Shown one piece after another: positions 2,063 through 52,986 of a stretch of 64,000 nucleotides of DNA. The notes under the pieces are model-generated. The model had not been told where the DNA came from and ran no database searches. It saw only the letters and a program-made list of their open reading frames with translations. The stretch's first letter is position 1; every line of letters starts with the position of its first letter. The position numbers and the translations under genes were made by a program. The DNA is from an uncultured Gemmatimonadales bacterium (GTDB taxonomy: Bacteria; Gemmatimonadota; Gemmatimonadetes; Gemmatimonadales; GWC2-71-9), in assembly GCA_963779755.1 (NCBI GenBank), contig CAVZZO010000001.1:864001-928000 (forward strand). The letters are read 5' to 3'.

Positions 2063-2922
2063 GGCCCGTGCGGCGGAGGCACCACGTGGCGGGCCGGCTC
2101 CAGAAAGGCGAAGACGGTACACTTGCCGCTGGGCTCGTGCAGCCGCCCCAGCTCCAGTACCTCGAGCCGGGCGAGGCTCGCCAGCCGGCGCACCGCCTCC
2201 GGGTGATACACGGCGCAATGTTCGGCGAAGAATTCCTGCCGGTGGGTAAGGTCCCCGTGCTCCCGGGCCAGATCGCCGTCGGGCAGCTCGACATAGAGGA
2301 AGCCCCCCGGCGCCAGCAGGCGGCGGCCCTGCTCCAGCAACCGCAGCGGATCGGGGACGTGCTCCAGTACCTTGTTGAAGGCGACCACGTCGAAGCGGTG
2401 CGTATCGGGAAAGGTGTCCAGCGTGCCGGCGTGGCCCCATTCGACACCGGCGTGCTCCCGCGCATGCCGCACCGCTGCGGGGTCGGGATCGACGCAGACG
2501 CAGCGGCAGCCGTGCCGGCCCAGCTCCGCCAGGAAGACGCACAGGCCGCTTCCCACGTCCAGCACATCGGCCTCGGCCGGATCCAGTTCCCGCCGGCGCA
2601 TGAAGGCGAGCACCCGCGCCACCCGCCGCCGGTTGTCCGACTGGTCGTCCGGCAGCGAAAGGATGCGGGTGAACGGCGTGAGAAAGTCCCGCTGCCAGCT
2701 GGCCTGGTTATAGTCGCCGGTGTAGTAATCCGGGGAGAGCAGGGCATGCGCGTTCAGGTAGAGACCGCACTCCCGGCACTGGTAGATGGATCGCCGGTAC
2801 TGGCCCGGGGCCACGCCGTAGTCCTTCTCTCCGGCCGGCGGGCGGTCCAGCGAGGCGAGTAGCGCGGGATCACCGGCGCCGCAGAGCGGGCAGCGGGGTG
2901 GGGCGGCAACCGGTGCGGTCAT
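2059..2922 (-). CDS. Class I SAM-dependent methyltransferase with N-terminal Cys4 zinc site
   Basis: CPLC...CREC; VLDVGSG; VLEHVPDP; LAPGGFLYVELP. Confidence 0.85.
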   Translation of the reverse strand: MTAPVAAPPRCPLCGAGDPALLASLDRPPAGEKDYGVAPGQYRRSIYQCRECGLYLNAHALLSPDYYTGDYNQASWQRDFLTPFTRILSLPDDQSDNRRRVARVLAFMRRRELDPAEADVLDVGSGLCVFLAELGRHGCRCVCVDPDPAAVRHAREHAGVEWGHAGTLDTFPDTHRFDVVAFNKVLEHVPDPLRLLEQGRRLLAPGGFLYVELPDGDLAREHGDLTHRQEFFAEHCAVYHPEAVRRLASLARLEVLELGRLHEPSGKCTVFAFLEPARHVVPPPHGP

Positions 2923-3950
2923 GGGATGGCTCCCTCCGCTGCCGGGGCCAGGTCCTCCAGCCGGATGGGGCGCCCCCGGGCGACGGCGTGGCGCAGGGTC
3001 CGGCCCAGCAACTCGTCCTCCCGGCCGGGCGCGAGCCCGGTGCGCGGGCGCAGCCAGTCGAGATCCTCCCAGGCCACGCGCGCGCCCGCGGGTAGGTCGT
3101 GCCGCGCCACGATCGAGCGGCGTGCGGCCCCGGCCGCGGCGGCCTCCGCCGGCTGGACCCGCTTTCCCTCCTGGCCCAGCATCTGTTCCGCCTCCCGCAC
3201 CCGGCGCACCAGTTCCGCCAGCTCCGGCGGGTCGGCCGAGAGCTGGTGGTCGCGGAAACCGGACTGCTGCTTGTTCAGCGTGAAATGCTTTTCGATGATG
3301 CGGGCCCCCAGCGCTACCGCCAGCGGCGCCGCGGCCGGTCCGATGGTATGGTCGGAATAGCCCACCGTCTCCCCCAGGGAGGCCAGCGCCGGGATTCCCC
3401 GCAGGCTCGCCGCCTCGGGCGGGGTAGGATAGCTCACCACGCAGTGGAGCAGCGCCAGTTCCCCCCGCCGTCCCAGCTCCCGCCAGGTCTGGCGCAACGT
3501 GTCGCGCGAGCGGCGAATCAGATCCAGATCGGCCAGGCCGGCCGAGAGGAGGACCGGCTTCCCGGTGGCCGCCACGGCCCGCAGGAGCGGAAAGAAGTCG
3601 TTGTCGCCCGAGGCGATCTTGAAGGCGGGCACCAGCCGGTCCAGCCAGGCCACACTGTCGATGTCGAAAGGGGTGGAGAGGAAGAGCACGCCGGCCTCCG
3701 CGGCGGCGCGGCTCAGGCGCTCGAAGTCTTCCGGCGAGAGACGGAAGCGCTCCAGCTGGCGCAGCCGGTCGGTCTGGTCGGGCGCGACCAGGCGCTCGGG
3801 GACGATGGTCTGGAACTTCACGGCGTCGGCCCCCGCCTCGGCTGCCCGGCCGATCATCTCCCGCGCCAGCCGCACGTCTCCCTCGTGATTGTTACCGATC
3901 TCGGCCACAATCAGTACCCGCCGGCTGGTGTCGAACTCTCCGATCCTGAT
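2919..3950 (-). CDS. neuB: N-acetylneuraminate/nonulosonate synthase (NeuB family) with C-terminal SAF domain; probable ATC start
   Basis: AEIGNNHEG, DAVKFQT, FKIASGD, LLHCVVSYP, GYSDHT, IIEKHFT, RRSIVA. The ORF track starts at GTG 3908, but NeuB-like sequence extends to ATC at 3950, which has an AAAGGAG SD. Confidence 0.9.
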   Translation of the reverse strand: MRIGEFDTSRRVLIVAEIGNNHEGDVRLAREMIGRAAEAGADAVKFQTIVPERLVAPDQTDRLRQLERFRLSPEDFERLSRAAAEAGVLFLSTPFDIDSVAWLDRLVPAFKIASGDNDFFPLLRAVAATGKPVLLSAGLADLDLIRRSRDTLRQTWRELGRRGELALLHCVVSYPTPPEAASLRGIPALASLGETVGYSDHTIGPAAAPLAVALGARIIEKHFTLNKQQSGFRDHQLSADPPELAELVRRVREAEQMLGQEGKRVQPAEAAAAGAARRSIVARHDLPAGARVAWEDLDWLRPRTGLAPGREDELLGRTLRHAVARGRPIRLEDLAPAAEGAIP

Positions 3951-3966
3951 GGCCTGCTCCTTTCAA

Positions 3967-4992
3967 TTACCGTTCGAGGGTGACCCGGCCTTCCTGGTCG
4001 ATGGACACCCGGCCCACCTGGCGCGCCGGGTTGCCCTGCATCACGCTGTAGGGCGCCACATCGGAGGTCACCACCGTGTTGGCGCCGATGAGGCAATGGT
4101 CCCCGATGGTGACCCCCTTGGTGACGACGGCGTTGGCGCCGAGGAAGCAGCAGTGCCCGACGCGGGTGGGCGAATGGGTGATGGAGGCGCGATGGCCGCT
4201 CAGCGCCCGGGCAATGGTGTCGTGGCTGTAGATGTGCACCCCGGCGGCGATGCTGCAATAATCACCGATCTCCAGCCCACCGCTCCCATCCAGCACCGTG
4301 AACGGCCCGATGAACGTCTGCCGGCCCACCCTGACGTCGCCGAAGACGTAGGAGAGATGGGAGATATTGCTGCCCGCGCCGAACCCGAGACGCTCGGCCG
4401 CGGCCCAGCGGTCGAAGAGAATGTCCGGTGTGGGGATGGTCCGGTGCCAGCGCCGGCTGTAGGTCTCCTGTAGCCAGGCGAGGGCCTGCTTCAGGCCGGC
4501 GGCCTCGCCCGCACCCGCCCCGCCGGGGTTGTCGTCGCGCATGATGGCATGCAGCGCCTCCCAGTCCGGGTCCGGCACTTCTTCCTCATGCCGCTCCCGC
4601 CGCAACCACTCCTCCACTTCGGCTGCCCGGAGGACTCCCCGCTGCCGGATCCGGGTGGCCTCGAGGCCGTGCCGGTCCAGCAGCTCCTGCGCCTTGCGGG
4701 TCGGAGTCACCTCGGCGCTGACGGCGCTGCCAGCATCCGGCAGCGCCGCCGGATCGATCGGCTTGGCATCCAGGAACCCGATGACCTGGCCCACGCTCAC
4801 CCGGTCGCCGGGGCCCACCACCATCCAGACATGGCCCTCCTCCTCCGCATCGAGCGAGAAGGTGGCCTTGGTGGACTGCAGCAGGCAGAGGGTTTCGCCC
4901 GCGCTGCAGCGCACGTTGTTCCGGGCCCGGATCTCCACCACCTCGACCACGTCTTCGTTGGCGGTGATGCGGGGAACGGCCAGCGGTCTCAT
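3967..4992 (-). CDS. Fusion of lipoyl domain, E1/E3-binding (PSBD-like) segment and left-handed beta-helix acyltransferase
   Basis: N-terminal LCLLQSTKAT...AEEEG...GDRVSVGQVIG (lipoyl fold, Lys kept); TRKAQELLDRHGL...GVLRAAEV (PSBD-like); hexapeptide repeats IGDYCSIAAGV, VGHCCFLGANAVV, IGDHCLIGANTVVTSDV, and GNPAR; ATGA overlap. Confidence 0.8.
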   Translation of the reverse strand: MRPLAVPRITANEDVVEVVEIRARNNVRCSAGETLCLLQSTKATFSLDAEEEGHVWMVVGPGDRVSVGQVIGFLDAKPIDPAALPDAGSAVSAEVTPTRKAQELLDRHGLEATRIRQRGVLRAAEVEEWLRRERHEEEVPDPDWEALHAIMRDDNPGGAGAGEAAGLKQALAWLQETYSRRWHRTIPTPDILFDRWAAAERLGFGAGSNISHLSYVFGDVRVGRQTFIGPFTVLDGSGGLEIGDYCSIAAGVHIYSHDTIARALSGHRASITHSPTRVGHCCFLGANAVVTKGVTIGDHCLIGANTVVTSDVAPYSVMQGNPARQVGRVSIDQEGRVTLER

Positions 4993-5996
4993 AGCAGCTC
5001 CCGTGCGGCACGCAGGATGTCGGTGACCCCCGGCAGATGCGCCTGCTCCACCGGCGGGCTGGCGGGGATGGGCGCGAAGGCCGGGCCCACCATCCGAACC
5101 CGGTCGAGCGGCAGGCCGCAGCCCGCCTCGGCCAGACGTCCCAGGAGATAGGGTCCCCAGCCGGCCGCGGCGTATCCCTCCTCCACCGACACCAGCCCGC
5201 GGGCGCCGCCGGCGCAACGGGCGATGGGCGCCACGTCCAGCGGCGAGATGAGCGACGGGATGCAGAGGGTGACGGTCGCCTCGTCTTCAATGAGCAGTCG
5301 GTAGGCCGCCTCCAGGGCGTGCGCGGCCATCCCCCCATAGCAGCAGAGAACCAGATCGGCCGTTTCGGCGGGACGGGCGGTGTGAAGCAGGGTGAGCGGG
5401 AGGGCGCCGGGCTCGACTTCGCGCCGGAACCCGCGATCGGCCAGTGCCGCGTCGGTCCAGGGCTCCGCCGGGTAGTCGCTCTTGTTCTCGATGAAGAACT
5501 TGACTGCCGCGGGATGGGCGAAGGCCGCCTGCAGCAACGCCCGGGGGCTCAGGGCCAGGCTGGGCGCAATGACGGCCACCTCGGGCCAGCCGAAGTAGAG
5601 TTTCTCCAGGCTCTGGCTGTGGATAGGCCCATAGCCGCGGCGACCGCCCATGGGTGTCCGGATCAGAACCGACCCGCCGGACGTCTTGCCGCGAAGCCAG
5701 GGAAACTTGGCCGCCCCGTTGATCACGGCGTCCGCCACCAGGGTAACGAAATCGCCGAACATGATCTCGACGATGGGTCGCTGGCCGACATAGGCCAGGC
5801 CGGCCGCCAGCCCCGTGAACCCCGCTTCGGATACCGGCGTCTGCAGCACCTGGCCGGGGAACCGGGTGGAGAGTCCCTCGGTGGCCTTGAAGGCGCCGCC
5901 GTAAGGGTCGCAGATATCCTCGCCCAGGAGCAGGCTGTCGCTGTCCCGCTCCAGGATGTCGGCCAGGCCGGCGCGGATCTCCTCGACGCACCTCAT
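4989..5996 (-). CDS. ThDP-dependent 2-oxoacid dehydrogenase/transketolase-like E1 beta subunit
   Basis: LGEDICDPYGGAFK, TPVSEAG, RPIVEIMFGDF, GGRRGYGPIHSQS. Confidence 0.9.
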   Translation of the reverse strand: MRCVEEIRAGLADILERDSDSLLLGEDICDPYGGAFKATEGLSTRFPGQVLQTPVSEAGFTGLAAGLAYVGQRPIVEIMFGDFVTLVADAVINGAAKFPWLRGKTSGGSVLIRTPMGGRRGYGPIHSQSLEKLYFGWPEVAVIAPSLALSPRALLQAAFAHPAAVKFFIENKSDYPAEPWTDAALADRGFRREVEPGALPLTLLHTARPAETADLVLCCYGGMAAHALEAAYRLLIEDEATVTLCIPSLISPLDVAPIARCAGGARGLVSVEEGYAAAGWGPYLLGRLAEAGCGLPLDRVRMVGPAFAPIPASPPVEQAHLPGVTDILRAARELL

Positions 5997-6910
5997 GGCA
6001 CTTCTCCGATTCCCAGGCGCCGGACCGTCTGTTCCGCCTCCCGCCGGATGGCCGCGAACTCGGGGATCTGGCGCTCCAGCAGCAGCATCGGATCCCGGGT
6101 ACGGGCCAGAGCCAACTCCTCCTGATTGCGGCTGTCGTCTCCCTTGCTGTGGGCGCAGAGCCGCGCCGCTTCGACCACGAGTGCGGCCGGCCCCCGGCCG
6201 GAGCGGACCCGGCCCACCAGCGCCCCGGCGAGATCCAGGATCTCGAACACATCGGTGCTGTCGAGCTGCACCACCGGTATGCCCACCGCTTCGAACCGGC
6301 CGGCCGGCAGGCCGGCCAGCACCGTTTCCGTCGCCGCCGACTGGACCAGGTGGTTGTACTCCACGACAAAGAGGAGAGGCAGCGACCAGAGGGAAGCCAG
6401 GTTCAGCGCCTCATAGGCGGCGCCCTCGCACAGGGCGCCGTCGCCGGCAAAGCAGACGACGCAGGCATTCTCCTTGCGGCGCCGGAGCCCGAGCGCGATG
6501 CCCGCCGCCACCGGCAGGGTGGAGCCGAGAATGCCGTTCGACAGGAAGTGGTCGGTGGCCAGCACCTGGCTGCCGCCCCGGCCCCCGGTGACGCCCTCGG
6601 CCAGGCCCCGGAGCTCGGCATGGAGACCGGCGAGATCGCCGGTGAAGGCCAGGTAGTGCCCGTGATTGCGGTGGTTACTGACCACGAAATCGCGGCCGGG
6701 GTCGAGATGCCAGGTTACCCCCACGGCCGTGGCCTCCTGGCCGATACAGCGGTGATAGGTCCCCGCGATCTGCCCCAGCCGGAAGAGCGGGTCCAGCGAT
6801 TCCTCGAACGCGCGGATGAGAGCCACACGGCGCGCCACCGCCGCGCGTTGCAGGGGGGGCAGCGGCGCCGGGGCCGGACGGCCGGCGAGAATCGGATCGG
6901 GGAACACCAC
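5993..6910 (-). CDS. ThDP-dependent dehydrogenase E1 alpha subunit
   Basis: GQEATAVG, SNHRNHGH, GDGA..EG..YEALNLA...N ThDP motif, RLCAHSKGDD. Confidence 0.9.
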   Translation of the reverse strand: MVFPDPILAGRPAPAPLPPLQRAAVARRVALIRAFEESLDPLFRLGQIAGTYHRCIGQEATAVGVTWHLDPGRDFVVSNHRNHGHYLAFTGDLAGLHAELRGLAEGVTGGRGGSQVLATDHFLSNGILGSTLPVAAGIALGLRRRKENACVVCFAGDGALCEGAAYEALNLASLWSLPLLFVVEYNHLVQSAATETVLAGLPAGRFEAVGIPVVQLDSTDVFEILDLAGALVGRVRSGRGPAALVVEAARLCAHSKGDDSRNQEELALARTRDPMLLLERQIPEFAAIRREAEQTVRRLGIGEVP

Positions 6911-6913
6911 GGC

Positions 6914-7948
6914 TCAGGCCCCCGCCGGGGCCGGGTCCCACACCGACCGGTACCAGTTGATGTATTCCACGAAGCCTCGTTCCAGCGGCCAGTTCGGCTG
7001 GTAGCCGATGAGGCGGCGCGCCTTGTCCACCGACAGCGTGCCCCGCCGCGGCATCAGCTGGTCGCGGGGCTGGTACTGGATCGTGGCGTCGGGGAAGTGC
7101 TCCTTGAGGACGGCCGCCATCTGGGCGATGCTGCGCGACTCGCCGTAGGTGAGGTTGAAGATCTGGTCGCGCGCTTCCTCCCGGCGCAGCACCTGGGCGA
7201 CCCCGTGCACCAGGTCGCGGATGTAGGTGAAGTCGAGCCGTTCGTCGCCATCGCCCCTGATGGTGATGGGGTCGCCGCGCAGGGCGTTCTCGATGAAGAT
7301 CTGGCCCACCCGGCGGCTGATGCAGCGCTCGCCGTAGAGCGCGCTGGGCCGCACGATGGTGTATGGGAGCCCGAACACCTGGCCGTAGGCAATGACCAGC
7401 TTCTCGCCTGCGAACTTGAGCGCGCCGTAGATCCCCAAAGGATCGCAGCGCGTGTCCTCCGTGACCTCACCGTCGGTGAAGTTGCCGTAGACCATGCTGC
7501 TGGAGAAATAGACGAAGTGCCGGATCCTGAGCTTCCTGGAGCGGGAGACATCCAGCGCGTTCTCCAGGGTGCGCAGGCTGTGGTCGAAGGTGCTGTGCGG
7601 ATCCTTGTTGGAGCGGTCGGCATGGGCCACCGCGGCCAGATGGACCAGCGCGTCCGGATTGAAGTCGGCCACGGTCTGGCTCAGCAGGTGGTAGTCCCGC
7701 GAGTCCTGGACGAACAGCGGGATGTCCCGCTCCCGAAGCAGCTCCAGCCGCTGCTGGATGACCCGCAGGTACAGCTCCGGATCGATTTTGTCGGCCGTAT
7801 CCCGCCTGACGCTGTAATAGTTGTTTACCGCCAGGCTGTCGATGACGGCCACCTCGGCGCCGGCCTGCTTCAGCGCCAGCGCCAGGTGGTGTCCGATGAA
7901 CCCGGCCCCCCCGACCAGGACGATGCGGCGGTTGGTGAGGTCAGGCAT
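6914..7948 (-). CDS. NAD-dependent nucleotide-sugar epimerase/dehydratase (extended SDR)
   Basis: GGAGFIG, HLAA, SSSMVYG, YGALK, DFTYIRD. Confidence 0.9.
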   Translation of the reverse strand: MPDLTNRRIVLVGGAGFIGHHLALALKQAGAEVAVIDSLAVNNYYSVRRDTADKIDPELYLRVIQQRLELLRERDIPLFVQDSRDYHLLSQTVADFNPDALVHLAAVAHADRSNKDPHSTFDHSLRTLENALDVSRSRKLRIRHFVYFSSSMVYGNFTDGEVTEDTRCDPLGIYGALKFAGEKLVIAYGQVFGLPYTIVRPSALYGERCISRRVGQIFIENALRGDPITIRGDGDERLDFTYIRDLVHGVAQVLRREEARDQIFNLTYGESRSIAQMAAVLKEHFPDATIQYQPRDQLMPRRGTLSVDKARRLIGYQPNWPLERGFVEYINWYRSVWDPAPAGA

Positions 7949-9104
7949 GCTGCGTCACCTCCTGAATGGCGCCCTCCAGCGATTGGGCGATGAAGGCCAT
8001 GTCGTCGGGGTCGAGGTGCGGCCCCACCGGAAGGGCGATGGACGAATTACAGAGGCGGGATGCCACCGGGAAATCGCTTTCGGTGCCGCCGTAGCGCTCG
8101 CGGTAGAAGGGCATGAGTGGCACCGGGTGGGGGTAGTAGATGCTGGTCTGTACCCCGCGGCGGGTCAGCTCGCGCATGATGTCCACCCGCCGCGCCGCCA
8201 GCGCCGGCGCCAGGATGGCGGAGTGGCAGTAGTAGCTGCTCTGGAAGTCGCCGCCGCCGCCCGAAAGCAGGCTCACATCCTCCAGCTCCCGCAGGGCCGC
8301 GGTCAGCACTTCGTAGTTCTCTTTGCGGCGTGCCAGGAAGTCCGGCAGCCGGCGCATCTGCTCCACACCCAGCGCGGCGCCCAGCTCGTTCAAGCGGTAG
8401 TTGAAACCCAGCTCCTCCACTTCGTACAGGCCCGGAACCTTGCGCTCCTCCGGGACATTCCGGTCGATCCCGAAGGCCCGTTCCCGGGCAATACCGTCGG
8501 CGATAGCCTGGTCGCGGGTAATCAGCATGCCGCCCTCGGCGGTGGTGATGTGCTTCACCGGGTAGAAGGAAAAACACCCCACGTCGCCCCAGAGGCCGGT
8601 GTGCACGTCGCGGTAGGCGGCGCCGAGGGAGAGGGCGCAGTCCTCCACCACAAAGAGCCCGTGACGCTCGGCTAGCGCGCGCACCCGGCCCATGTCCACG
8701 GGCAGTCCCAGGTAATGCACCACCGAGATGCCCCTGGTCCGCGGCGTGATGAGCCCCTCGGCCTGGGTCAGGTCGAGATTGCCGGTCTCCGGCTCGGCAT
8801 CCACGAAGACGGGCGTGGCACCGCAGTATTCCACCGCATGAGCAGTGGCGGTGTGGGTCACCGCCGGGACCAGGACCTCGTCGCCGGGGCCGATGCCCCG
8901 GTGGAACCAGGCCAGATGCAGCGCGGCGGTGCAGGAGGCCAGCGCCACGGCACGGGGCGCCCCGGTGAAGGCGGCGAACGCCGATTCGAATTCCCGGACA
9001 ACCGGCCCGTGCGTCAGGACCGAGCCGTTCAGCACGGCGAGCACCGCCCGGCGCTCCTCCTCGCCGATCATGGGCCGGCCGAATGCGATGGTGCGCTGGG
9101 TCAT
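7941..9104 (-). CDS. DegT/DnrJ/EryC1/StrS PLP-dependent sugar aminotransferase
   Basis: SCTAALH, VVEDCA, FSFYPVKHITTAEGG, GFNYRL. Confidence 0.92.
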   Translation of the reverse strand: MTQRTIAFGRPMIGEEERRAVLAVLNGSVLTHGPVVREFESAFAAFTGAPRAVALASCTAALHLAWFHRGIGPGDEVLVPAVTHTATAHAVEYCGATPVFVDAEPETGNLDLTQAEGLITPRTRGISVVHYLGLPVDMGRVRALAERHGLFVVEDCALSLGAAYRDVHTGLWGDVGCFSFYPVKHITTAEGGMLITRDQAIADGIARERAFGIDRNVPEERKVPGLYEVEELGFNYRLNELGAALGVEQMRRLPDFLARRKENYEVLTAALRELEDVSLLSGGGGDFQSSYYCHSAILAPALAARRVDIMRELTRRGVQTSIYYPHPVPLMPFYRERYGGTESDFPVASRLCNSSIALPVGPHLDPDDMAFIAQSLEGAIQEVTQHA

Positions 9105-10141
9105 GCCTTCGCCTCTCCCTTTCCCGCGCCCGCCGGAGCCTGAACCGCGACGGGCGCGCCGCCCTGCTCGAGCGAATCCTCGATCGCAAAGCAGACGTCC
9201 AGCGTCTGGAAGACATCGGTCTCAGTGACGGGCGGCTCGGTACCGCGATGCAGGGCATCCACGAAGTCGCGGGCCAGCTCGGTCTTGTGGACGCCGGGAT
9301 AGGCGGCGGTGACCGGCCGGCCTACGGCCTGCCCCTCCCGCCGCTCGATGAGCGTACCTTCCGCCGGGCCGTTCACGAAGGTGGCCCGGGTACCATAGAC
9401 GGTGAGGCCGTGGAAGTGGGGATGGACGCATCCCATATTGGCCGTCACCTTGCCGATCATGCCGCTCTCGAACCGGAGCAGTGCCGCGACATAATCGGGA
9501 TAGTGGAACGCCGAATCCCGCGTCGCGATCCGGTTGCCGAAGGCGGTTACTTCCGTCACCCGGTCGCCCGTGAGCCAGAGGAGCAGGTCGACCAGGTGCA
9601 CCGCGCCGCCCAGCACGACGGAGTACCAGGGCAGCCGCCCGCGCCAGCCGTCGGTCAGCTTGTGCAGCCGGCCGTAGTTGTACTCGCCGTCGGCCGCGAA
9701 CAGCTGGCCCAGCGTGCCGCCGGCGATTTCCTCCCGCAGCCAGCGGAACCGGGGGGCGCACCGGAGGATCAGGTTGCTGCAGAGCCGCTGGCCCGGATGC
9801 CGGGCCAGCGCCGCGCGGATATCCTCGGCCTCCGCCCGGCTCTGGCAGAGCGGCTTCTCCACGAAGACGTGCTTACCCTGTTCCAGCGCCCGGACGACCT
9901 GGTCGTGATGGGCGTCGTCCCAGCTGGCCACGGAAACGAGGTCGATGCCGGGATCGTCCAGCAGGTCTTCCGCCCGGGTGGTGCGGCGCGCATCCGGGTA
10001 CTTCTCGCCCACCTCCCGCAGAACCCGGGGCGACTGGTCGCAGATCGCGACCAGCCTGGAGTGGGGGCTTCCGGCGTAGGCCTCCGCATGCCGGGCGCCC
10101 ACGCCCAGGCCGATGACCGCGGCCCGGATCGGCGCGTTCAT
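9101..10141 (-). CDS. Gfo/Idh/MocA family oxidoreductase
   Basis: AAVIGLGVG, GKHVFVEKPL, GAVHLVD; ATGA overlap. Confidence 0.9.
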   Translation of the reverse strand: MNAPIRAAVIGLGVGARHAEAYAGSPHSRLVAICDQSPRVLREVGEKYPDARRTTRAEDLLDDPGIDLVSVASWDDAHHDQVVRALEQGKHVFVEKPLCQSRAEAEDIRAALARHPGQRLCSNLILRCAPRFRWLREEIAGGTLGQLFAADGEYNYGRLHKLTDGWRGRLPWYSVVLGGAVHLVDLLLWLTGDRVTEVTAFGNRIATRDSAFHYPDYVAALLRFESGMIGKVTANMGCVHPHFHGLTVYGTRATFVNGPAEGTLIERREGQAVGRPVTAAYPGVHKTELARDFVDALHRGTEPPVTETDVFQTLDVCFAIEDSLEQGGAPVAVQAPAGAGKGEAKA

Positions 10142-10836
10142 CGCGCCACCATCCCGGCGGCGAGGGCCTCGTCCGCCAGGCTCAGGATCTCGCGCCACCC
10201 GTATTCCCAGTGGGGACGGGTCATCCGCTCCACCACCGCTTCGAACCGGGCCACATCCTCATCGGTGTCCACGGAGAGCTGCCGGGCCGAAAAGTCTCCC
10301 GGCGCGTGGAATTCGAGAACACGGTAGGGACGCCGGTAGAAGTAGCGGGTGACGTGTTCCCGGTCGGCCGGGTCGGTCATCAGGGGCAGGGCCTCGCGGA
10401 AGATGCTGGAGCCGAACACCTCGACCGACTGGCCCCGGGGGAAGCTGCGGTGCCGCACGTTGCTCACCGCCTCGGGCTGCTCGCTCCGGAAGAGGGTCAC
10501 CGCGTGGCTCACCAGCCGCTGGTCCAGCAGGGGCGCGTCGCCCGTCACCCGCACAAAGGCGTCGAAGCCGAAGCGGTCGACGACGTCGAGAAACCGCCGG
10601 GCCACGTCGTCCAGCGGCCCCCGGTGCCAGGGTATGCCCCGATCGCGGCAGAACTGCTCGATGGCGTCGTCGTCCGACTCGACCGAGGTGGCCACCACGA
10701 TGCCGTCCAGGTCGCGCGCGCGCCCCAGCCGTTCGAGCAGCCAGGCCAGCAGCGGCTGGCCGCGTACCTGATGCAGCACTTTTCCGGGGCGGCGGGTGGA
10801 GCTCATCCGCGCCTGGACGATGGCGCCGATCTTCAT
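10138..10836 (-). CDS. Cytidylyltransferase (SpsF/CMP-nonulosonate synthetase-like)
   Basis: IVQARMSSTRRPGKVL, VVATS, GPLDDVARRF, VRVTGDAPLLD, REHVT, LSVDTDED. Confidence 0.9.
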   Translation of the reverse strand: MKIGAIVQARMSSTRRPGKVLHQVRGQPLLAWLLERLGRARDLDGIVVATSVESDDDAIEQFCRDRGIPWHRGPLDDVARRFLDVVDRFGFDAFVRVTGDAPLLDQRLVSHAVTLFRSEQPEAVSNVRHRSFPRGQSVEVFGSSIFREALPLMTDPADREHVTRYFYRRPYRVLEFHAPGDFSARQLSVDTDEDVARFEAVVERMTRPHWEYGWREILSLADEALAAGMVAR

Positions 10837-12014
10837 CGTTTGCCTCCCGTGCCGCGGGCGTGCCGCGCGTGCTGCAGGGTGCGCCGGTACAGGCGCTCCA
10901 GGCTCGAGGTATAGTGCTCCACGGAAAAGCGTTGCCGCTCCTCGCGGCATCCCTGCCGCAGCTGTTCCAGGATCTGCGGCTCCTCCAGCAGGCGCCGGAG
11001 GGCACCGGCCAGCGCGCCGGCGTCGCCGGGAGGGACCAGCAGGCCGCTGCGACCCTCCCTCACCACCTCGGGCAATCCACCTTCGCGTGAGGCGACCACC
11101 GGAACCGCGGCGGCCACCCCTTCGATGGCCGAGTTGCCCAGGGCCTCTTCGATGGACGGCACGACACAGATGGTGCTGAGCGCCAGGTGAGTCACGACGT
11201 CGCGCTGGAAGCCGGCGAAGATCACCCGGTCGGAGACCCCCAGCGCGCGGGCCTGAGCGTCCAGTTCGTCGCGCAGCGGCCCGTCGCCCACCAGCAGCAG
11301 GCGCGCCTTCGGGAAGCGGTCGCTGATCCCGGCGAAGGCCGAAATCAGGAAGCGGATGCCCTTGGCGGGGTAGAAGCGGGTGATGGCGGTGATGACCGGG
11401 GTACCCTTCGGCAGGCCGTAGGCAGCGCGAAGCTTTGCGACCGCGTCGGGATCGGCGGGACGGAGCAGGTCGTCGGGTACCGGGTTGTGCAGGGTATGGA
11501 TCAGGGACGAAGGGAAGCCCATCTGCTGCATGGCGAAGCGGCGGGTGCTCTCCGAGTTGGCCACCACCGCGCTGGTATAACGAGCCAGACGACGGTAGGC
11601 GAACGCCACGTAGCTCGGATACCCGCGGCGCTGGTGCTCGCTGTGGTGGGAGCGCACATGGACCACGGCCGGAGTGCCCGTCAGGATGGCCGCCAGCCGC
11701 CCATAGGTGCAGGCGCCGAAATCCCACAGGTGCAGCAGATGAGGGCGGTGGCGGCGGATCAGTCGTACCAGGGCGAGGATCTGCAGGGGATTGAACCGAT
11801 GGTAGCCCAGGAACCGGACCGGGTTGCCTTCCGAGCGGACCGAGCGGCCCAGCGCCCCTTCCTTCTGCAGCACGACCGGGATGATCTGCACCCGGCTCGG
11901 GTCGAAGGCGGTGGCCATGGCGACCATCATGCGCCCGCTGCCGTGCAGCCGCTCGTCGTAGCCGATATGATCGCAGAGCAGCAGGACCCGCACCGGTTCC
12001 GCCGGCGCGCGCAT
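10833..12014 (-). CDS. Glycosyltransferase family 4 (alternative start at 12233)
   Basis: RFYPAKG, LVGDGPLR, FAGFQRD, PSIEEALGNSAIEG, VPVVASREGGLPE. Confidence 0.88.
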   Translation of the reverse strand: MRAPAEPVRVLLLCDHIGYDERLHGSGRMMVAMATAFDPSRVQIIPVVLQKEGALGRSVRSEGNPVRFLGYHRFNPLQILALVRLIRRHRPHLLHLWDFGACTYGRLAAILTGTPAVVHVRSHHSEHQRRGYPSYVAFAYRRLARYTSAVVANSESTRRFAMQQMGFPSSLIHTLHNPVPDDLLRPADPDAVAKLRAAYGLPKGTPVITAITRFYPAKGIRFLISAFAGISDRFPKARLLLVGDGPLRDELDAQARALGVSDRVIFAGFQRDVVTHLALSTICVVPSIEEALGNSAIEGVAAAVPVVASREGGLPEVVREGRSGLLVPPGDAGALAGALRRLLEEPQILEQLRQGCREERQRFSVEHYTSSLERLYRRTLQHARHARGTGGKR

Positions 12015-12416
12015 GGGCCGCTGCTCCGGGACGGCACGCGGGACGGCGGTGGGCGGAACGGCGGCGGTGGCAAGGGTCAGGGGCGATGGCACGGCGACCT
12101 GCAGCTGAGCGGAACTGTGGCGGCGACGGCTGGACGGCGACAGCGCGGGGAGGTGGGCAAGCAGATGGTGTGCCAACCCATGGCCGTGGCGGCCGTGACG
12201 CGGATGGTCAGGCAGCAGCACCTTGATGGTCATCTCCCCCCCGCCGAGATCGGGTCCACCTGTGGCAGTCGTGAGAGTCTGGTGTTGCACTCGTCCTGTG
12301 ACGAACGTCACCGGGGGGCGCCGGTTGCGGCGCCAGGATAGACTTATGCTACTGAGGCGGGGTACAACACACCGTGATGTGGGGCACGGGAGGGTGGGAA
12401 GGTGGAGGAGAGGAAA

Positions 12417-14653: not shown

Positions 14654-15820
14654 TCAGGCGGACTTCCGCTTCGCTGACTTCGATCGCTTCGACCGCTTCT
14701 TGAGCTCGAAGGTCGGCTGGAAGAGGTACTCGGGGTCGAGCCGCTCGGCGGCCACCCCCACCTCTTCCCGCGGCTGCCGGTAGGTATAGCGCTCGCCGCG
14801 GAAGTTCCGGAGTACCACCTCGTCCTCGTTATAGCTCTCCACGTATTCCGGCAACAGCGGGATCTTGCCGCCGCCGCCCGGGGCGTCGATGACGAAATAG
14901 GGGATGGCCAGCCCGCTGGTCCAGCCCCGCAGCGCTTTCATGATCTTGAGGCCTGTTTCCACCGAGGTGCGGAAGTGCTCCGCCCCGGCCACCTGGTCGG
15001 CCATATAGATGTAGTAGGGCCGGACCCGGGCCAGCAGCAGGCGGTGCATCAGCTCCATCATCACCTTGGGCGTGTCGTTGACGCCCTTGAGCAGCACCGT
15101 CTGGCAGCCCAGCGGGATGCCGGCATCGGCCAGCATGCCCAGGGCCTTCATCGCCGCCGGCGTCAGCTCGTCGGGGTGATTGAAATGGGTGTTGATGAAG
15201 AGCGGGTGGAACTCATGCAGCATGGCCGTGAGCTCCGGCGTCACCCGCTCCGGCAGATGGCAGGGCACCCGGCTTCCGATCCGCAGGATCTGGAGGTGCT
15301 TGATGCCCCGCAGCCGGGTGAGGATTTCCTTCAGCCGGCGGTCGGACAGCAGGAGCGGATCGCCGCCCGACATGATGACGTCGCGGATCTCGGTATGCGA
15401 TTCGAGATACTTGAAGGCCGACTCGAACTGCGACATCGGGATCTTTTCGGGGTCGCCCACTTTGCGCCGCCGGGTGCAGAAGCGGCAGTAGCTGGCGCAG
15501 ACCGGGGAGACCAGGAACAGCGCCCGGTCGGGATAGCGGTGGGTGATGTTGGGCACCGGGCTGTCGGCGTCTTCGCCCAGCGAGTCCACAATGCCGTCGA
15601 CCACCTCCAGCTCCTGTAACGTGGGGACGTACTGGCGCCAGATCGGGTCGCCCGGCTCCTTGATCAGATCCACCATCGCGGGCGAGATGCGGAACTCGAA
15701 GTTCTCGGCAGCCTGCCGCAGCTGGTCGATATGCTCGACATGCTCCGGCCCGAAGCGCTGTGCCAGCGCCTCCAGGCTGCGGATGGAGTTCTGCTTGAGC
15801 AGTTCTTGCCACGTCGCCAT
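14654..15820 (-). CDS. kamA: KamA-family radical SAM/PLP lysine 2,3-aminomutase
   Basis: THRYPDR, CASYCRFCTRRR, SGGDPL, THFNHP, QTVLLKGVND, PYYIYMAD, DAPGGGGK. Confidence 0.92.
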   Translation of the reverse strand: MATWQELLKQNSIRSLEALAQRFGPEHVEHIDQLRQAAENFEFRISPAMVDLIKEPGDPIWRQYVPTLQELEVVDGIVDSLGEDADSPVPNITHRYPDRALFLVSPVCASYCRFCTRRRKVGDPEKIPMSQFESAFKYLESHTEIRDVIMSGGDPLLLSDRRLKEILTRLRGIKHLQILRIGSRVPCHLPERVTPELTAMLHEFHPLFINTHFNHPDELTPAAMKALGMLADAGIPLGCQTVLLKGVNDTPKVMMELMHRLLLARVRPYYIYMADQVAGAEHFRTSVETGLKIMKALRGWTSGLAIPYFVIDAPGGGGKIPLLPEYVESYNEDEVVLRNFRGERYTYRQPREEVGVAAERLDPEYLFQPTFELKKRSKRSKSAKRKSA

Positions 15821-15823
15821 GAG

Positions 15824-16342
15824 CTACCTGCCTTGTGGACCGGCGGAAGAGGGACCGAGCGGCTTCGTATAGACGATCTGGTGATCGCCCGGGGCGTAGA
15901 AATCCGGAATCCGGGCCACGGCGGTGTAGCCGCAGGACCGGTAGAACGCCTGGGTGGGCGCGTAGAGGTCGCGTCCGCCCGTTTCCACCACGAGCATCCG
16001 CGCCCGGCCTGCCAGGCGGCGTTCCATCTGGGCGATGAGGGCGCGGCCCACCCCGGCACGCTGCGCGGCGGGATCCACCACGATCCAGTAGAGATCGTAG
16101 GTGCCCTCGGTGCAGGGCGTCGGCCCCCAGCAGATCCAGCCCGCCAGCGCGCCGTCGACCACGGCGCCCAGCGTCTCGTAATCCCGCTGCCCCGCCACCA
16201 GCGAGGCATCGAATACCTCCAGCGCCACCAGGACTTCCTCCTCGCGGAAGAAGCTGGTCGCCCGGACCATCCGTTCCACTGCGGGGCGATCGGCCGCGGT
16301 GAGCGGCCGCAACCCGGGCTTCAGTTCGGCGCGTGCGGTCAT
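15824..16342 (-). CDS. GNAT N-acetyltransferase
   Basis: YDLYWIVVDPAAQRAGVGRAL, FYRSCGY, DFYAPGD; ATGA overlap. Confidence 0.88.
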   Translation of the reverse strand: MTARAELKPGLRPLTAADRPAVERMVRATSFFREEEVLVALEVFDASLVAGQRDYETLGAVVDGALAGWICWGPTPCTEGTYDLYWIVVDPAAQRAGVGRALIAQMERRLAGRARMLVVETGGRDLYAPTQAFYRSCGYTAVARIPDFYAPGDHQIVYTKPLGPSSAGPQGR

Positions 16343-17343
16343 GCGCGGGGCTCCGTCAGGGTGGTGGCGGCCTGGCGCGAGGCGGCGCGGTCGAGCGTCT
16401 CCCGGATCACCTGCGCCAGCAGCTCCTCGTAATCCCAGCTCTCGGCCTGGGCCATTCGGGCCAGGCCGGCATCGACTGAAAGATCCGCGTTGGGATTTAC
16501 CTCGAGCACGAACGGCCGCCCCGCCTCGTCCACCCGCAGATCCACCCGGCCGTAACCCTCGCAATTCGTCAGCAATTCCCAGGCCCGCCGGGCCGCATCC
16601 GCAAGCCGGGCTTGGAGATCGGGGTCGATCCGCGCGGGGCAGATGGGAATGGTGCCGCGGTCTTCTTCGCTGCCCTCTTCCCACTTGGCGGAGTAGGTGA
16701 CGATGGGCCATCGGCTCGCCGGCATGGCGGCGAAATCGATTTCCGAGATGGGAAGCATCTTCCGGCCGACGAAGCCCACGTTGAATTCCCGCCCCGCCAC
16801 ATACTCCTGCACCAGCACGTCCTCCCACTGCTCGGCCATCCGGGCCACCCGGTCACGCAGCCCTTCGGCGGTGGTGCAGACCGCCCCCACGTCCACGCCC
16901 AGGCTGGCGTCTTCCGCCGCCGGCTTGACGATTGCCGGCAGGCCGACCCCGTCGGGAATGGTGTTGCCTCTCGCCAGTCCGAAGGGCGGGACCGGGATGT
17001 TTTCCGACTGAAGCAGGGCGTTCGCCACGTGTTTCCGGTGGCAGATCGCGGTGGCCCAGGCGCGGCAGCCGGTGAAGGGCACGCCGCACAGCTCCAGGGT
17101 GCCGACCACCCAGTCCTCGAACCGCGAATGGCCGTCCAGCCCCTCACAGAGGTTGAAGATCACGTCGGCCCTCCGGACGGCGGTGAGCCAGCGCCAGTCG
17201 CCCGGACGGATCGGCACCAGGGTGCAGGCGTGGCCCCGCCGGCGGAGGCAGGTCTGCACGATGCGGACGCTTTCCACCGCCGCGGCGATGTCGCGCTGAT
17301 CCCAGTGCACGCCGCCCGGATCGAACAGAATGGCGACCTTCAC
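16339..17343 (-). CDS. Ddl-like ATP-grasp ligase (second copy)
   Basis: FNLCEG, IVKPAAEDASLG, QEYVAGREFNV, TYSAKW, YGRVDLR, LEVNPN; GTGA overlap. Confidence 0.87.
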   Translation of the reverse strand: MKVAILFDPGGVHWDQRDIAAAVESVRIVQTCLRRRGHACTLVPIRPGDWRWLTAVRRADVIFNLCEGLDGHSRFEDWVVGTLELCGVPFTGCRAWATAICHRKHVANALLQSENIPVPPFGLARGNTIPDGVGLPAIVKPAAEDASLGVDVGAVCTTAEGLRDRVARMAEQWEDVLVQEYVAGREFNVGFVGRKMLPISEIDFAAMPASRWPIVTYSAKWEEGSEEDRGTIPICPARIDPDLQARLADAARRAWELLTNCEGYGRVDLRVDEAGRPFVLEVNPNADLSVDAGLARMAQAESWDYEELLAQVIRETLDRAASRQAATTLTEPRA

Positions 17344-18449
17344 GGCGCCACTCCGGCCCCGAGCGGCCGGCCGCTGATCCGCCGCCAGGCGATATCGGCG
17401 ACGGCCTGAATCAGTTCCTCGTAGCTCATCCCCGCCGCGCGCGCGGCCTTGGGGAAGCAGGAATTGTCCCTGGGGTCTGGCAGAATGCCCGGAAGCGGAT
17501 TGAGCTCCACCACCATCGGGTGCCCCGTGCCGTCGCAGCGGATGTCCACCCGGCACCAGTCGCGGCAGCCCAGGGTGCGGTAGCCGGCCAGCGCGGCGGA
17601 GCGGATCTCCGCTGCCAGCGGCTCGGGAATCCGCGCCGGGCACTCGAAGATCTCCAGCGGATTGTCCAGCGTGTCCCAGAGCCACTTCGCCTCGTAGCCG
17701 TAGACCGGAGGCGCGCCGGGCGGCAGGCAGTCGAAATTGAATCCCACCAGGGGGAGACAGCGGGCCTCGTCGCCATTGCCGATGATCGCCACGGTGAACT
17801 CGGGGCCGGGCAGCCAGGCCTCGATCAGCACCGGCTGGCTGTAAGTGGCGAGCAGATACTCCACCCGGGCCACCAGCTCGGCTCGGTTCGCGCACAGGTT
17901 GCTGATGGCGATCCCCTTGCCCGAGCCCTCCGCCACCGGCTTTACGAACAGCGGGAACGGCAGGGAGACGTTGCGGGCGTCGGCCACCGAGCGCGCCACC
18001 AGGAAGGGAGCGGTGGGCACGCCGTGGAAGCTCAGGATCTCCTTGGTCCGCCCCTTGTCCAGGGTCAGCGCCAGGGCCAGCGGGTCGGAGGCGGAGTAGG
18101 GGATGCCGAAGAACTCGCAGATGGCGGGGACGTGGCCCTCGCGGTTGGGCCCGTAGAGGCCCTCGGCGATGTTGAAGACGAAATCGGGCCGCGCCTGTGC
18201 CAGCCGGGCGGGAAACTCCCTGGTGGCTTCCAGGCGGATCACCTCGCCCACACCCAGCAGCGCCTGCTCGACCGCGGCAATGGTGGCGGGTTCGTCCCAC
18301 TCGGCGTAGAGATCGGGTTGCTCGAGATCGGTGCGGAGCGCGCGTTGCGGCGAGAGGCCGGCGGATAGAGGAGAGGACAAGTCCGCCCCGGTCGGAGTGA
18401 CCGGCGCCTCTGGCTTCTGGTTGTAGGCGAGACCTATTCGGACGCCCAA
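17340..18449 (-). CDS. Ddl-like ATP-grasp ligase (first copy)
   Basis: FNIAEG, LDKGRTK, FVKPVAEGSGKGI, GYEAKW, RVDIR, ELNPLPG; TTG start with AAGGGG SD. Confidence 0.88.
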   Translation of the reverse strand: MGVRIGLAYNQKPEAPVTPTGADLSSPLSAGLSPQRALRTDLEQPDLYAEWDEPATIAAVEQALLGVGEVIRLEATREFPARLAQARPDFVFNIAEGLYGPNREGHVPAICEFFGIPYSASDPLALALTLDKGRTKEILSFHGVPTAPFLVARSVADARNVSLPFPLFVKPVAEGSGKGIAISNLCANRAELVARVEYLLATYSQPVLIEAWLPGPEFTVAIIGNGDEARCLPLVGFNFDCLPPGAPPVYGYEAKWLWDTLDNPLEIFECPARIPEPLAAEIRSAALAGYRTLGCRDWCRVDIRCDGTGHPMVVELNPLPGILPDPRDNSCFPKAARAAGMSYEELIQAVADIAWRRISGRPLGAGVAP

Positions 18450-18541
18450 ACGGTCCCCTTTAAAAAAAGGTCGCCTCCTGCAGTGAGGCGCGGATCGTTG
18501 TTTGGCGCCAACAAATTAAGAAAAAGCCGACGCGGACACAA
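18450..18541 (-). promoter_or_regulatory. Candidate sigma70 promoter and structured leader (attenuator-like)
   Basis: TTGTGT-17 nt-TAATTT (18541-18513), then hairpin CGCCTC/GAGGCG and a T7 run directly before the SD. Confidence 0.5.
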
Positions 18542-38284: not shown

Positions 38285-40147
38285 TCACGTTTGTTCCAGG
38301 ATCACGCCGCCGGGCCGCGGGAACTGAAGCCGCACGACCCCGCCCGAGAAATCCAGTGGCGCGCTCGCCTGGTCGGGAGCATAGAGCTCGCTGTCCAGCC
38401 GCAGGTGCCAGCCCTCCACCCGCTCCGCCGGCGCCAGTTCGCTCGGCAGCTCCAGCAGTCCCGCCCCGCGGAGCCGTACCACCACCAGCAGCCCATGCCC
38501 CTCCGACTGCCGCCACAGGCACAGACCGTCGGAACCAAGCGGCCGGACCTCGAGCAGGGCGTCTTCCTGAAACCATGCCGCGGTTTCGCGGCGCAGGGAC
38601 AGCAGGTCGCGGTAGAGTCGCAGCAGCGACGCGTGCGGTTCCTCCGCGGCTTCATGCCAGTCGAGCCGGCTCCTCCGGAAGGTTTCCGGCGACTGAGGAT
38701 CGGGAATGCCCTCCCGCGCGGCGGGATCGGCAAAGGCCCGGAAGGACTGGAACTCCCGCCGTCGCCCTTCGGTCACCAACCGTCCCAGTTCGGGGTTGTG
38801 CTCGGTAAAATAGAGAAACGGACTGCCCGCTCCCCATTCCTGGCCCATGAAGAGAAGCGGGGTCTCCGGGGCCGTAAGCAGGAGCACGCTGGCGGCCCGC
38901 CAGGCCGCCAGATCAATACCATGGTGCAGCCGGTCGCCGCAGGCGCGATTCCCCACCTGGTCGTGATTCTGGAGGGCGATGACAAACCGGTACCGGGGGA
39001 TGCCGGCGGGATCGGTGCCCCGCGCCCTGCCGCTGCGCGGGCTCGGCTGCCCCCGGAATAGCCAGCCGGCCCGGAGCGCCGTGGCGATCTCGGCGGTGGT
39101 CCCCTCGAAATCGGCGAAGTACCCCTCCGTATCGCCCGCCAGCAGGCGGCGCACGATATGATGGAAATCGTCCGACCAGACACCGTCCAGTCCGTCGCCG
39201 CCGTCGCGGGTGGGTCGCACCAGCCGGTCGAGGTTGCGGTTGTCCTCGGCGATCATCACCACCTGGCGTCCGGACGCGGCCCGGCGCGCCGCCTCGGCTA
39301 TATCGGCCAGAATATGGCGTGGGCCGTCGTCCAGGATGGCGTGCGTGGCGTCCAGCCGCAGGCCGTCCATATGGTACTCCCGGATCCAGTGCTCCGCGTT
39401 CCCGGTGACGAACCCGCGGACCGGTCCGCTTCGGTCACCGTCATAGTTGACCGCGTCGCCCCAGGGGGTGCGGTGCCGGGAGGAGAAGTAATACGGGCTG
39501 AAGGCGCCCAGATAGTTGCCGTCCGGTCCCAGATGGTTGTAGACCACGTCCAGCAGCACGGCGAGCCCCAGCGCGTGGGCGGTGTCCACCAGCCGCCGCA
39601 AATCGTCCGGCGTGCCGTAGGTGCCGGAGGGTGCGTAGAGCGCCACGCCGTCGTAGCCCCAGTTCCGCCCGCCGGGAAAGTCCGCCACCGGCATCAGCTC
39701 CACCGCCGTGACGCCCAGGTCGTTGAGATAGGGCAGGCGTGCGGTGGCGGCGGCAAAGGTGCCCTCGGGCGTGAAGGTGCCGACATGCAGCTCGTAGACG
39801 ACCAGCCCCTGCTGCGGCCGTCCGGCCCAGTCGCCGTCGGTCCAGCGGAAGGCGGCCGGGTCCACCACCTCCGACGGACCGTGCACCCCTTCGGGCTGGT
39901 AGCGCGAGGCGGGGTCGGGGAAGGGACCCTCCCCATCCAGCCGGTAGCGGTAACGGTCGCCGGGGCGAACGCCGGGCACCAGCCCGCCGAAGTAGCCGTC
40001 GCCTCCCGGTTGCAGCGGGTACACCGCATCGGGGGCGCCGGGCACCGCGAGCAGCAACTCCACCTGCCGCCGCTCGGGCGCCCAGACGCGGAAGCGGGTA
40101 CCGCCGGATTCGGGCCGCGCGCCGACCCAGCCGGCGGTGCCGGTCAC
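38285..40147 (-). CDS. treZ: Malto-oligosyltrehalose trehalohydrolase
   Basis: [62 protein letters not shown] overlap. Confidence 0.94.
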
Positions 40148-42108: not shown

Positions 42109-42135
42109 GTCAAAGTCTCCTCTCTGCCGTACGGG

Positions 42136-45534
<3,399 letters not shown>

Positions 45535-45554
45535 GAGCTCGTTCGCCTCTCGGG

Positions 45555-47614: not shown

Positions 47615-47618
<4 letters not shown>
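45555..47618 (-). CDS. glgE: Alpha-1,4-glucan:maltose-1-phosphate maltosyltransferase
   Basis: [56 protein letters not shown]. Confidence 0.95.
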
Positions 47619-49774
<2,156 letters not shown>

Positions 49775-49848
49775 GCGTCGTGCAATCTCCCTTGCTTGAC
49801 GTCTCGGCTTTCTCGACTCTGGTGACCTTCGCGATTCTTTCGGCCGCC

Positions 49849-52740: not shown

Positions 52741-52986
52741 GCGTCCGCCCCGTCGGGGCAGGCGAGAGGAGGTAGCCGGAAAGCGCCGGTGTACGCCGGC
52801 GGCTGAACTGCCAGGCACATAGCGGATCGCGAACTCCGAAATGATGGGGCGGCCGAAAAACAGGTCCCTTTCAATAGTACACCCCTCGAGGGGCGGGAAT
52901 GCGTGCGGCAGCGCACATTTGATGCAAACGACTGACTGGCAATATCTTGGGATGGTCCTGCCCCGGCCCGCTCCACCGGAGATCAC

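Follow-up and report, generated by a model that had tools for sequence, protein, structure and literature searches.

A putative lipoyl-dependent acyl relay from 2-oxo acid to amino sugar encoded in a nonulosonic acid operon of an uncultured Gemmatimonadales bacterium

The stretch of DNA analyzed here (the window; 64,000 nucleotides, positions 864,001 to 928,000 of contig CAVZZO010000001.1 in assembly GCA_963779755.1) comes from an uncultured Gemmatimonadales bacterium, has a G+C content of 66-72%, and opens with 12.3 kb that form one minus-strand operon of 12 glycan genes (Table 1). Because nearly all junctions between positions 3 and 12311 are 4-base ATGA/GTGA overlaps or gaps of a few bases, the arrangement points to a single, tightly coupled operon; both a NeuB-type synthase and a CTP_transf_3 cytidylyltransferase are present, the pair by which a nonulosonic acid locus is recognized. 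The subject of this report is a set of three consecutive genes in this operon, which encode the alpha and beta subunits of an E1-like thiamine diphosphate (ThDP) enzyme and a fusion protein that joins a lipoyl domain and a helix pair resembling a peripheral subunit-binding domain (PSBD) to a left-handed beta-helix (LbH) acyltransferase. An original prediction, made from the sequence of the window, had described this trio as a dedicated relay that may acylate a surface sugar without coenzyme A (CoA). The coordinates, order and minus-strand orientation that it gave for the three genes all proved correct; the E1alpha and E1beta genes overlap by 4 bases and the ATG of the fusion gene at 4992 overlaps the E1beta stop as ATGA, in line with the translational coupling that had been claimed, and Pfam matches of the neighboring genes agree with the placement of the trio between an aminotransferase/short-chain dehydrogenase/reductase (SDR) pair, the aminotransferase/dehydratase of the prediction, and neuB.

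The fusion protein begins as an E2 subunit would and ends as a sugar acyltransferase would. Its Biotin_lipoyl match covers residues 14-71 (23.9 bits, cut-off 22.1), and the lysine of the QSTKAT motif singled out in the original prediction is K42, which lies within LQSTKATF at the tip of a hairpin. In an AlphaFold2 model based on a 36-sequence alignment (mean predicted local distance difference test score 88.3), residues 1-75 form a beta barrel, which a low-confidence linker (76-94) joins to three short helices (99-107, 112-115, and 123-134); the helical cap spans residues 142-201 and the beta helix residues 215-340. Among solved structures, chains of the N-acetyltransferase Pcryo_0619 (8vr6, 8vr7, and 8vrm) were the top Foldseek matches of this model, with 44% identity and a target TM score of 0.86, and maltose O-acetyltransferases and AntD trailed far behind; the profile of the fusion family likewise matched 8vr6_A at 1.6e-66 over positions 170-333, and its matches to E. 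coli E2p, one to each of the three lipoyl domains, ranged from 1.7e-5 to 5.7e-4. H257 of the LbH domain is invariant and the conserved Y-x-H-D loop is present. The 2-oxoacid_dh domain, which resembles chloramphenicol acetyltransferase (CAT), was not detected by Pfam in the fusion protein at E<=10 and was found in 0 of 36 fusion family members among the 25 of 43 Pfam families listed for them, which upholds the claim that an LbH acyltransferase has taken the place of the CAT-like domain. With regard to other sugar acyltransferase families, Pfam did not detect PglD_N in the window protein, and its NeuD_NnaD score, to which the LbH part only contributes, was 61.2 bits (cut-off 160.8).

The origin of the lipoyl/PSBD-like front half was traced with residues 1-150, for which a phmmer search against 1.84 billion representatives returned 509 matches at E<=0.001, including 18 at E<=1e-10. 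Of the 147 new proteins among the best 150 listed, 90 went into a Pfam scan at E<=1e-6, which left aside 51 proteins of less than 300 amino acids (aa) and six proteins of 469-1715 aa with multi-stretch matches. A true 2-oxoacid_dh domain was present in 42 of the 90 scanned proteins, mostly 360-430 aa long, and Hexapep in 35, 11 of which also carried PglD_N; three fragments carried PglD_N only, seven proteins showed a lipoyl domain only or nothing, and one protein each combined the lipoyl domain with beta-ketoacyl-acyl carrier protein synthase (KAS) III, with E1beta, and with a piece of a tRNA synthetase. The KAS III protein (P0310) is a single sequence, a representative in which the lipoyl module and the KAS III domain occur together, and the E1beta protein (P0294) combines in one reading frame an E1beta (36% identical to that of the window), a lipoyl and PSBD-like part (30%) and a hexapeptide-like tail; these two could be true fusions or errors of assembly, sequencing or annotation.

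Among the short E2 proteins, 39 of the 42 were aligned (three truncated or two-lipoyl ones were omitted), and because an hhalign comparison of the fusion family with these genuine E2s spans residues 1-141 at a probability of 99.9 (E 8.4e-35), the lipoyl domain and the helix pair are, by profile comparison, derived together from E2 proteins. The short E2s share the module of residues 1-141 with the fusion, including the lysine hairpin and a T-x-K-A...G-x-x-x-x-D-V helix pair; unlike the fusion, they keep the 2-oxoacid_dh domain with its D-H-R motif. Seven of the 39 match Pfam E3_binding weakly at E<=1 (best 0.0023), and look-alikes of residues 1-140 in the Atlas, taken as a lead only, form clusters of about 150 aa in which 81-100% of the members carry E3_binding. 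The residue aligned with K42 is lysine in 146 of the 147 representatives listed, and in all 35 Hexapep-bearing ones. LbH proteins of the PglD_N type are also fused to this lipoyl module (the 11 Hexapep-bearing proteins and three fragments mentioned above, and several Atlas clusters), and, as judged from domain content, the joining of lipoyl module and LbH recurs independently, on two kinds of LbH acyltransferase.

With the whole fusion protein as query, a word-indexed search scored 8000 candidates, of which 958 reached E<=0.001, and the best 120 of these were examined. These 120 comprised 36 full-length fusions of 341-388 aa (including the query), one 228-aa fragment, and 83 stand-alone LbH proteins of 187-219 aa that are 45-60% identical to the C-terminal half of the fusion. 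K42 is invariant in all 36 aligned fusions, within the motif E/Q-S/T-S/T-K-A/S/T, the Biotin_lipoyl domain was matched in 35 of them, and their middle region follows the consensus T-x-K-A-x-x-L-L...G-V-I-K-x-S-D-V-E-x-x-L. In a tree of the LbH domains, 35 of the 36 fused domains share one side of a branch with a support of 96, opposite the 83 stand-alone proteins, and for this reason the fusion is counted as old and maintained; the 36th fused domain sits on a long branch, and the fusion may have had a single origin. The two groups differ at a handful of group-specific positions (S211/Y, F227/W, and R262/W). Five loci with a stand-alone LbH protein were read (L002 to L006), none of which has E1. 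Four of these (L003 to L006) carry aminotransferase genes, with Gfo and SDR genes in addition in L003 and L006 and neuB in addition in L004 and L005; in L002, no neighbor beyond the LbH gene was matched with the query set. These neighborhoods, together with the 44% identity to Pcryo_0619, tie the LbH domain to sugars. In the Atlas, at least nine clusters of 56-232 members each combine Biotin_lipoyl and Hexapep, most commonly in Planctomycetota, Actinomycetota, Chloroflexota, and Pseudomonadota, under generic names such as "biotin/lipoyl-containing protein" or a plain acyltransferase label. As far as searched, this architecture is widespread, unnamed and unexplained; a search of plasmid sequences returned 1311 records, none covering 80% of the fusion protein.

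With regard to the E1 pair, the alpha subunit scores 147 bits against E1_dh and 19.4 bits against Transketolase_N, for which the cut-off of 22 is not reached. The nearest solved relative of E1alpha is human pyruvate dehydrogenase (PDH) E1alpha (3.3e-33), and those of E1beta are from Pyrobaculum (8.4e-32) and human (2.6e-28). Both the GDG...N ThDP/Mg motif and the histidine in RLCAHSKGDD are kept in comparison with human PDH E1alpha and with a Pelagibacteraceae copy that is 46% identical to the E1alpha of the window, and E57 and H126 of E1beta are invariant in 32 aligned relatives. We take E57 and H126 to be the cofactor-activating glutamate and active-site histidine, and the kept alpha and beta histidines presumably serve reductive acylation of lipoamide. 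On these residues and domain matches, the E1 looks catalytically competent and is of the 2-oxo-acid dehydrogenase type (alpha2beta2) rather than a split transketolase. Housekeeping PDH E1 was rejected as an identity for the pair, since both subunits reach only about half of the cut-off scores of the NCBIfam equivalogs (E1alpha 188.1 bits against PDH_E1_alph_y, cut-off 393.85; E1beta 131.4 bits, cut-off 321). In naphthyridinomycin and quinocarcin biosynthesis, NapB/NapD and QncN/QncL act as split transketolases, with ketose phosphates as substrates and an acyl carrier protein as acceptor. An alpha subunit of this kind, which we assume to belong to the Transketolase_N type, was also rejected, at 19.4 bits against a cut-off of 22, as judged from that assumed class. 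The analogy drawn with these systems in the original prediction is a loose one; it is retained in its lipoyl-loading logic, in that a ThDP enzyme would load a lipoyl arm that serves a non-CoA acceptor, and is given up for the E1 itself, which has an E1_dh alpha subunit, and for the acceptor, which is presumed to be an amino sugar. Because E1alpha is of the E1_dh and not the Transketolase_N type, a 2-oxo acid is a likelier donor than a ketose phosphate.

Linkage of the E1 pair to the fusion extends beyond the window. In a locus from a Pelagibacteraceae single-cell genome (L001), the gene order is Gfo, E1alpha, E1beta, fusion, DegT, SDR, NeuB, with overlaps at the E1alpha/E1beta and E1beta/fusion junctions as in the window; the gene set is therefore found again beside neuB in one distant genome. 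Downstream of NeuB, this locus carries AsnB-like, HisH-like and HisF-like genes (6704-9897), a trio that presumably makes acetamidino groups on sugars. The E1beta sequence of L001 is shared exactly by a cluster that occurs on 16 contigs, Tara data included. As a proxy for linkage in other genomes, we compared the source and exact size of the longest contig; 13 of 35 fusion homologs share both with one of the 119 best E1beta matches, compared with 0 of 83 stand-alone LbH proteins in the control. In an E1beta tree of 121 rows, all 15 fusion-linked rows fall on a 43-row side, where the E1beta of the window also lies, and none among the 78 rows of the other (support 99). These comparisons mark the trio as a probable dedicated unit. 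The same approach with the SDR was of no help in linking the fusion to glycan genes, as only two contig sizes were shared; SDR homologs are 63-89% identical over the best 119 listed and make up a very large, unusually conserved family. In some members of this family (601 aa), a GNAT acetyltransferase is joined to the SDR, which is another tie between SDR and N-acyltransferase.

We interpret the trio as a small, self-contained relative of the 2-oxo-acid dehydrogenases in which the E2 core would have been swapped for a sugar N-acyltransferase, a reading to which we assign a probability of roughly 0.58; its make-up suggests that an acyl group moves from a 2-oxo acid to an amino sugar without CoA. 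In such a relay, the ThDP-dependent E1alpha/beta would decarboxylate a 2-oxo acid and transfer the resulting acyl group reductively to the lipoyl group on Lys42 of the fusion, which the PSBD-like domain would hold on E1 and/or on the E3 of the cell. The acyl-dihydrolipoyl arm would then swing to the catalytic site of the LbH domain (solved relatives of this domain are trimers) and take the place of acyl-CoA; the acyl group would pass to the amino group set on a nucleotide sugar by the neighboring aminotransferase, a housekeeping E3 would re-oxidize the arm, and a nonulosonic acid-containing glycan would receive one of its amino sugars in N-acylated form. Each chemical step of this cycle, the direct CoA-free transfer included, is an inference from the architecture, conservation and linkage that the sequences show. 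In alpha2beta2-type complexes such as the PDH of Geobacillus stearothermophilus, the PSBD binds E1 too, and recruitment of E3 is thus not the only role that the PSBD-like domain could have. The relay as first proposed is supported in part: the dedicated trio and the E2-derived arm hold up, and the ketose-derived loading suggested by analogy becomes less likely.

Among known systems, the 2-oxo-acid dehydrogenases with a heterotetrameric E1 (pyruvate and branched-chain; 1w85, 3exe, and 1um9) resemble the trio in that their E1alpha and E1beta carry ThDP motifs and the product of the adjoining gene has a lipoyl domain followed by a small helical domain for binding, whereas the trio has an LbH in place of a CAT-like core, no nearby E3, and a glycan operon as its setting. 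Pcryo_0619 of Psychrobacter cryohalolentis K5 shares the helical cap and LbH fold, but stands alone, at about 180 aa, without a lipoyl or PSBD part. PglD, PseH, LegH and NeuD likewise work beside a DegT aminotransferase and NeuB and acylate nucleotide sugars on their amino group; they use acetyl-CoA, while the window protein lacks PglD_N and scores below the NeuD_NnaD cut-off, and some of the wider lipoyl fusion members do carry PglD_N, as PglD-type enzymes do.

A number of observations weigh against the relay. The search for the proteins that would complete it gave negative results; a scan of 44 frames from all over the window revealed neither an E3 (Pyr_redox-type domain) nor a lipoate ligase (the absence of an E3 gene had been part of the original prediction), and the readable locus of L001 lacks both. 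While the PSBD-like helix pair is supported by the helices of the model and by the E2 homology, Pfam E3_binding was not matched in the fusion at E<=10, was not among the 25 of 43 families listed for the 36 members, and the segment alone matched nothing in PDB, so that the PSBD assignment is indirect. The linkage evidence is limited in that two full fusion loci were read (the window and L001), that chance equalities do occur in the contig-size proxy (1159 and 1750), and that 28 of the 43 rows on the fusion-linked side of the E1beta tree carry no linkage information either way; the SDR family occurs mostly without the fusion. A NeuC/LegG/PseG-type enzyme was found neither among the 12 operon genes nor in L001, and the route to the NeuB substrate is incomplete in the genes that can be read, the operon being cut by the left edge of the window and L001 at both ends. 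Finally, the closest solved LbH relatives (8vr6, 8vr7, and 8vrm) were crystallized with acetyl-CoA or CoA, and the fused LbH domain keeps nearly all of the residues conserved in the CoA-using stand-alone group; judged by these residues, it may still use acyl-CoA.

This last point is also what speaks for the explanation that would best account for the trio if the relay were wrong, namely that the LbH domain uses acetyl-CoA, that the E1 pair carries out other sugar chemistry, for example the addition of a two-carbon branch to a keto sugar, and that the lipoyl/PSBD part only docks proteins. E1-like pairs occur in branched-sugar antibiotic pathways, the SDR and Gfo oxidoreductase of the operon could make keto sugars, and the conserved cores of fused and stand-alone LbH proteins are nearly identical; yet a lysine that docking would not need is conserved without exception in the 36 fusions and in all but one of the 147 front-half representatives, the alpha and beta histidines that we take to serve reductive acylation are kept, and the module derives from real E2 proteins. 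We thus regard the docking explanation as unlikely, though deserving of attention. It is distinctly improbable that the trio belongs to catabolism or central metabolism, as a 2-oxo-acid dehydrogenase of the pyruvate/acetoin type whose LbH domain acts as an odd E2 that acylates CoA, with its position in a glycan operon reflecting local acyl-CoA supply or chance. While automatic names of related E1beta proteins (pyruvate, 2-oxoglutarate or acetoin dehydrogenase E1) and the PDHs as nearest solved E1 relatives would fit such an enzyme, the LbH domain shares its 44% identity with a sugar N-acetyltransferase and groups with LbH proteins of glycan loci, both E1 subunits fall far below the PDH equivalog cut-offs, and start/stop overlaps chain the twelve glycan genes of an operon whose set recurs with neuB in L001. 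That the N-terminal barrel is biotinylated or unmodified and has a structural role is very improbable indeed, since a weak match to a Pfam family that spans biotinyl and lipoyl domains, and a threonine before the lysine where we assume aspartate to be usual in E2, are set against a motif unlike the Met-Lys-Met that we take to mark biotin carriers, homology to true-E2 modules and to the E. coli E2p lipoyl domains, and a partner that is an E1 and not a carboxylase.

Under the relay, pyruvate may supply ordinary acetyl, or the group transferred may be one that the cell does not hold as a pool of CoA thioester; a non-acetyl group is weakly favored, because a dedicated three-gene route exists even in a Pelagibacteraceae genome, and N-glycolyl, which the original prediction named as a candidate, is a guess. 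N-glycolyl and N-glyceroyl nonulosonic acids are reported for Tannerella forsythia (PMC5420450). The acceptor is most likely a 4-amino hexose precursor of nonulosonic acid, in which case the acyl group would end up on N7, but it may instead be another amino sugar of the same glycan. The aminotransferase is PseC-like, with a score below the cut-off of the PseC model (Table 1). In PDB searches, the SDR resembles 4,6-dehydratases, 4-epimerases and UDP-glucuronate decarboxylases about equally and the Gfo protein resembles sugar 3-dehydrogenases, and these searches did not single out a sugar. The O-antigen of P. cryohalolentis K5 contains di- and triacetamido sugars according to passages of PMC8040287 that do not mention Pcryo_0619, and "lipoyl" in PMC4875605 denotes a fatty acyl group. 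The literature searched, which did not extend to subscription journals, yielded no paper that places an E1 or a lipoyl-bearing protein at a nonulosonic acid locus.

Table 1. Features of the glycan operon at the start of the window and of the fusion protein; operon genes are listed in the direction of transcription, from the GT4 gene to the partial open reading frame, and followed by the parts of the fusion protein
Feature	Position	Strand	Match or remark
Glycosyltransferase family 4 (GT4) glycosyltransferase	10833-12311	minus	Glycos_transf_1 2.4e-36; true start uncertain
CTP_transf_3 cytidylyltransferase	10138-10836	minus	CTP_transf_3 5.9e-24; start 10836
Gfo/Idh/MocA oxidoreductase	9101-10141	minus	start taken as the ATG at 10141
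DegT/PseC-like sugar aminotransferase	7941-9104	minus	DegT_DnrJ_EryC1 9e-107; PseC model 302.5 bits (cut-off 423.5)
SDR epimerase/dehydratase	6914-7948	minus	Epimerase 7.7e-47; 50% identity to the L001 copy
E1alpha-like ThDP subunit, 305 aa	5993-6910	minus	Pfam E1_dh 7.7e-43
E1beta-like subunit, 335 aa	4989-5996	minus	Transket_pyr 6.9e-21 and Transketolase_C 1.5e-10
Fusion protein P0001, 341 aa	3967-4992	minus	lipoyl, PSBD-like, helical cap and LbH acyltransferase
NeuB-family nonulosonic acid synthase	2919-3950	minus	NeuB 2e-63, SAF 6.4e-9; ATC start
Methyltransferase	2059-2922	minus	Methyltransf_23 3.5e-23
Wzx-type flippase	728-2062	minus	Polysacc_synt_3 1.8e-19; start 2062
Partial open reading frame, possible nonulosonic acid transferase	3-731	minus	runs off the window; weak A-2_8-polyST match, E 0.42
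P0001, lipoyl domain, residues 1-75	4768-4992	minus	Biotin_lipoyl 3.7e-5; K42 codon 4867-4869
P0001, PSBD-like helix pair, residues 95-134	4591-4710	minus	hhalign to short E2s and helices of the model
P0001, helical cap and LbH acyltransferase, residues 142-341	3970-4569	minus	Hexapep 1.5e-15

Several further features of the window were recorded. Upstream of the conserved N-terminus of NeuB (3930-3966, minus strand), there is no ATG, GTG or TTG, and the sole in-frame start is the ATC at 3950, which follows aaaggag by six bases; this suggests either that translation begins at ATC, which would be rare, or that it is coupled to translation of the fusion gene, 14 bases upstream. In the partial open reading frame at the edge of the window, YEEGLG and NHP motifs are present, which we take to be like those of bacterial sialyltransferases. 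Rfam and tRNA scans of the window gave no matches. A radical SAM gene resembling lysine-2,3-aminomutase and an ATP-grasp gene of the D-Ala-D-Ala-ligase type lie close to each other (14654-18515, minus strand), immediately beyond the operon and a gene for a fatty acid desaturase, and a large alpha-glucan/trehalose gene set, unrelated to the trio, occupies 38285-54171 and 61604-63915, with GlgE-like, maltokinase-fused amylase, branching and debranching enzymes followed by OtsA-like and OtsB-like ones.

The lipoyl module is found fused to two unrelated kinds of LbH acyltransferase, to KAS III and to E1beta (the last two in single sequences), and on this basis we propose, tentatively and with the odds somewhat against it, that lipoyl arms serve as acyl donors outside central metabolism, in a general and so far unrecognized 2-oxo-acid dehydrogenase design with exchangeable acceptor modules. 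With regard to the trio itself, a relay of the kind outlined above would extend the use of the lipoyl swinging arm from the making of acyl-CoA to the direct decoration of surface sugars and would link the pool of 2-oxo acids to the pattern of N-acyl groups on a surface glycan. It could also account for N-acyl groups that lack a ready CoA thioester, as a CoA-free route to unusual N-acyls (glycolyl, formyl, and others) on sialic-acid-like sugars, including those of marine Pelagibacteraceae. As the architecture is common in databases under generic names, a single result could annotate a large family, and the enzymes would potentially allow variants of N-acyl sugars to be made from inexpensive 2-oxo acids.

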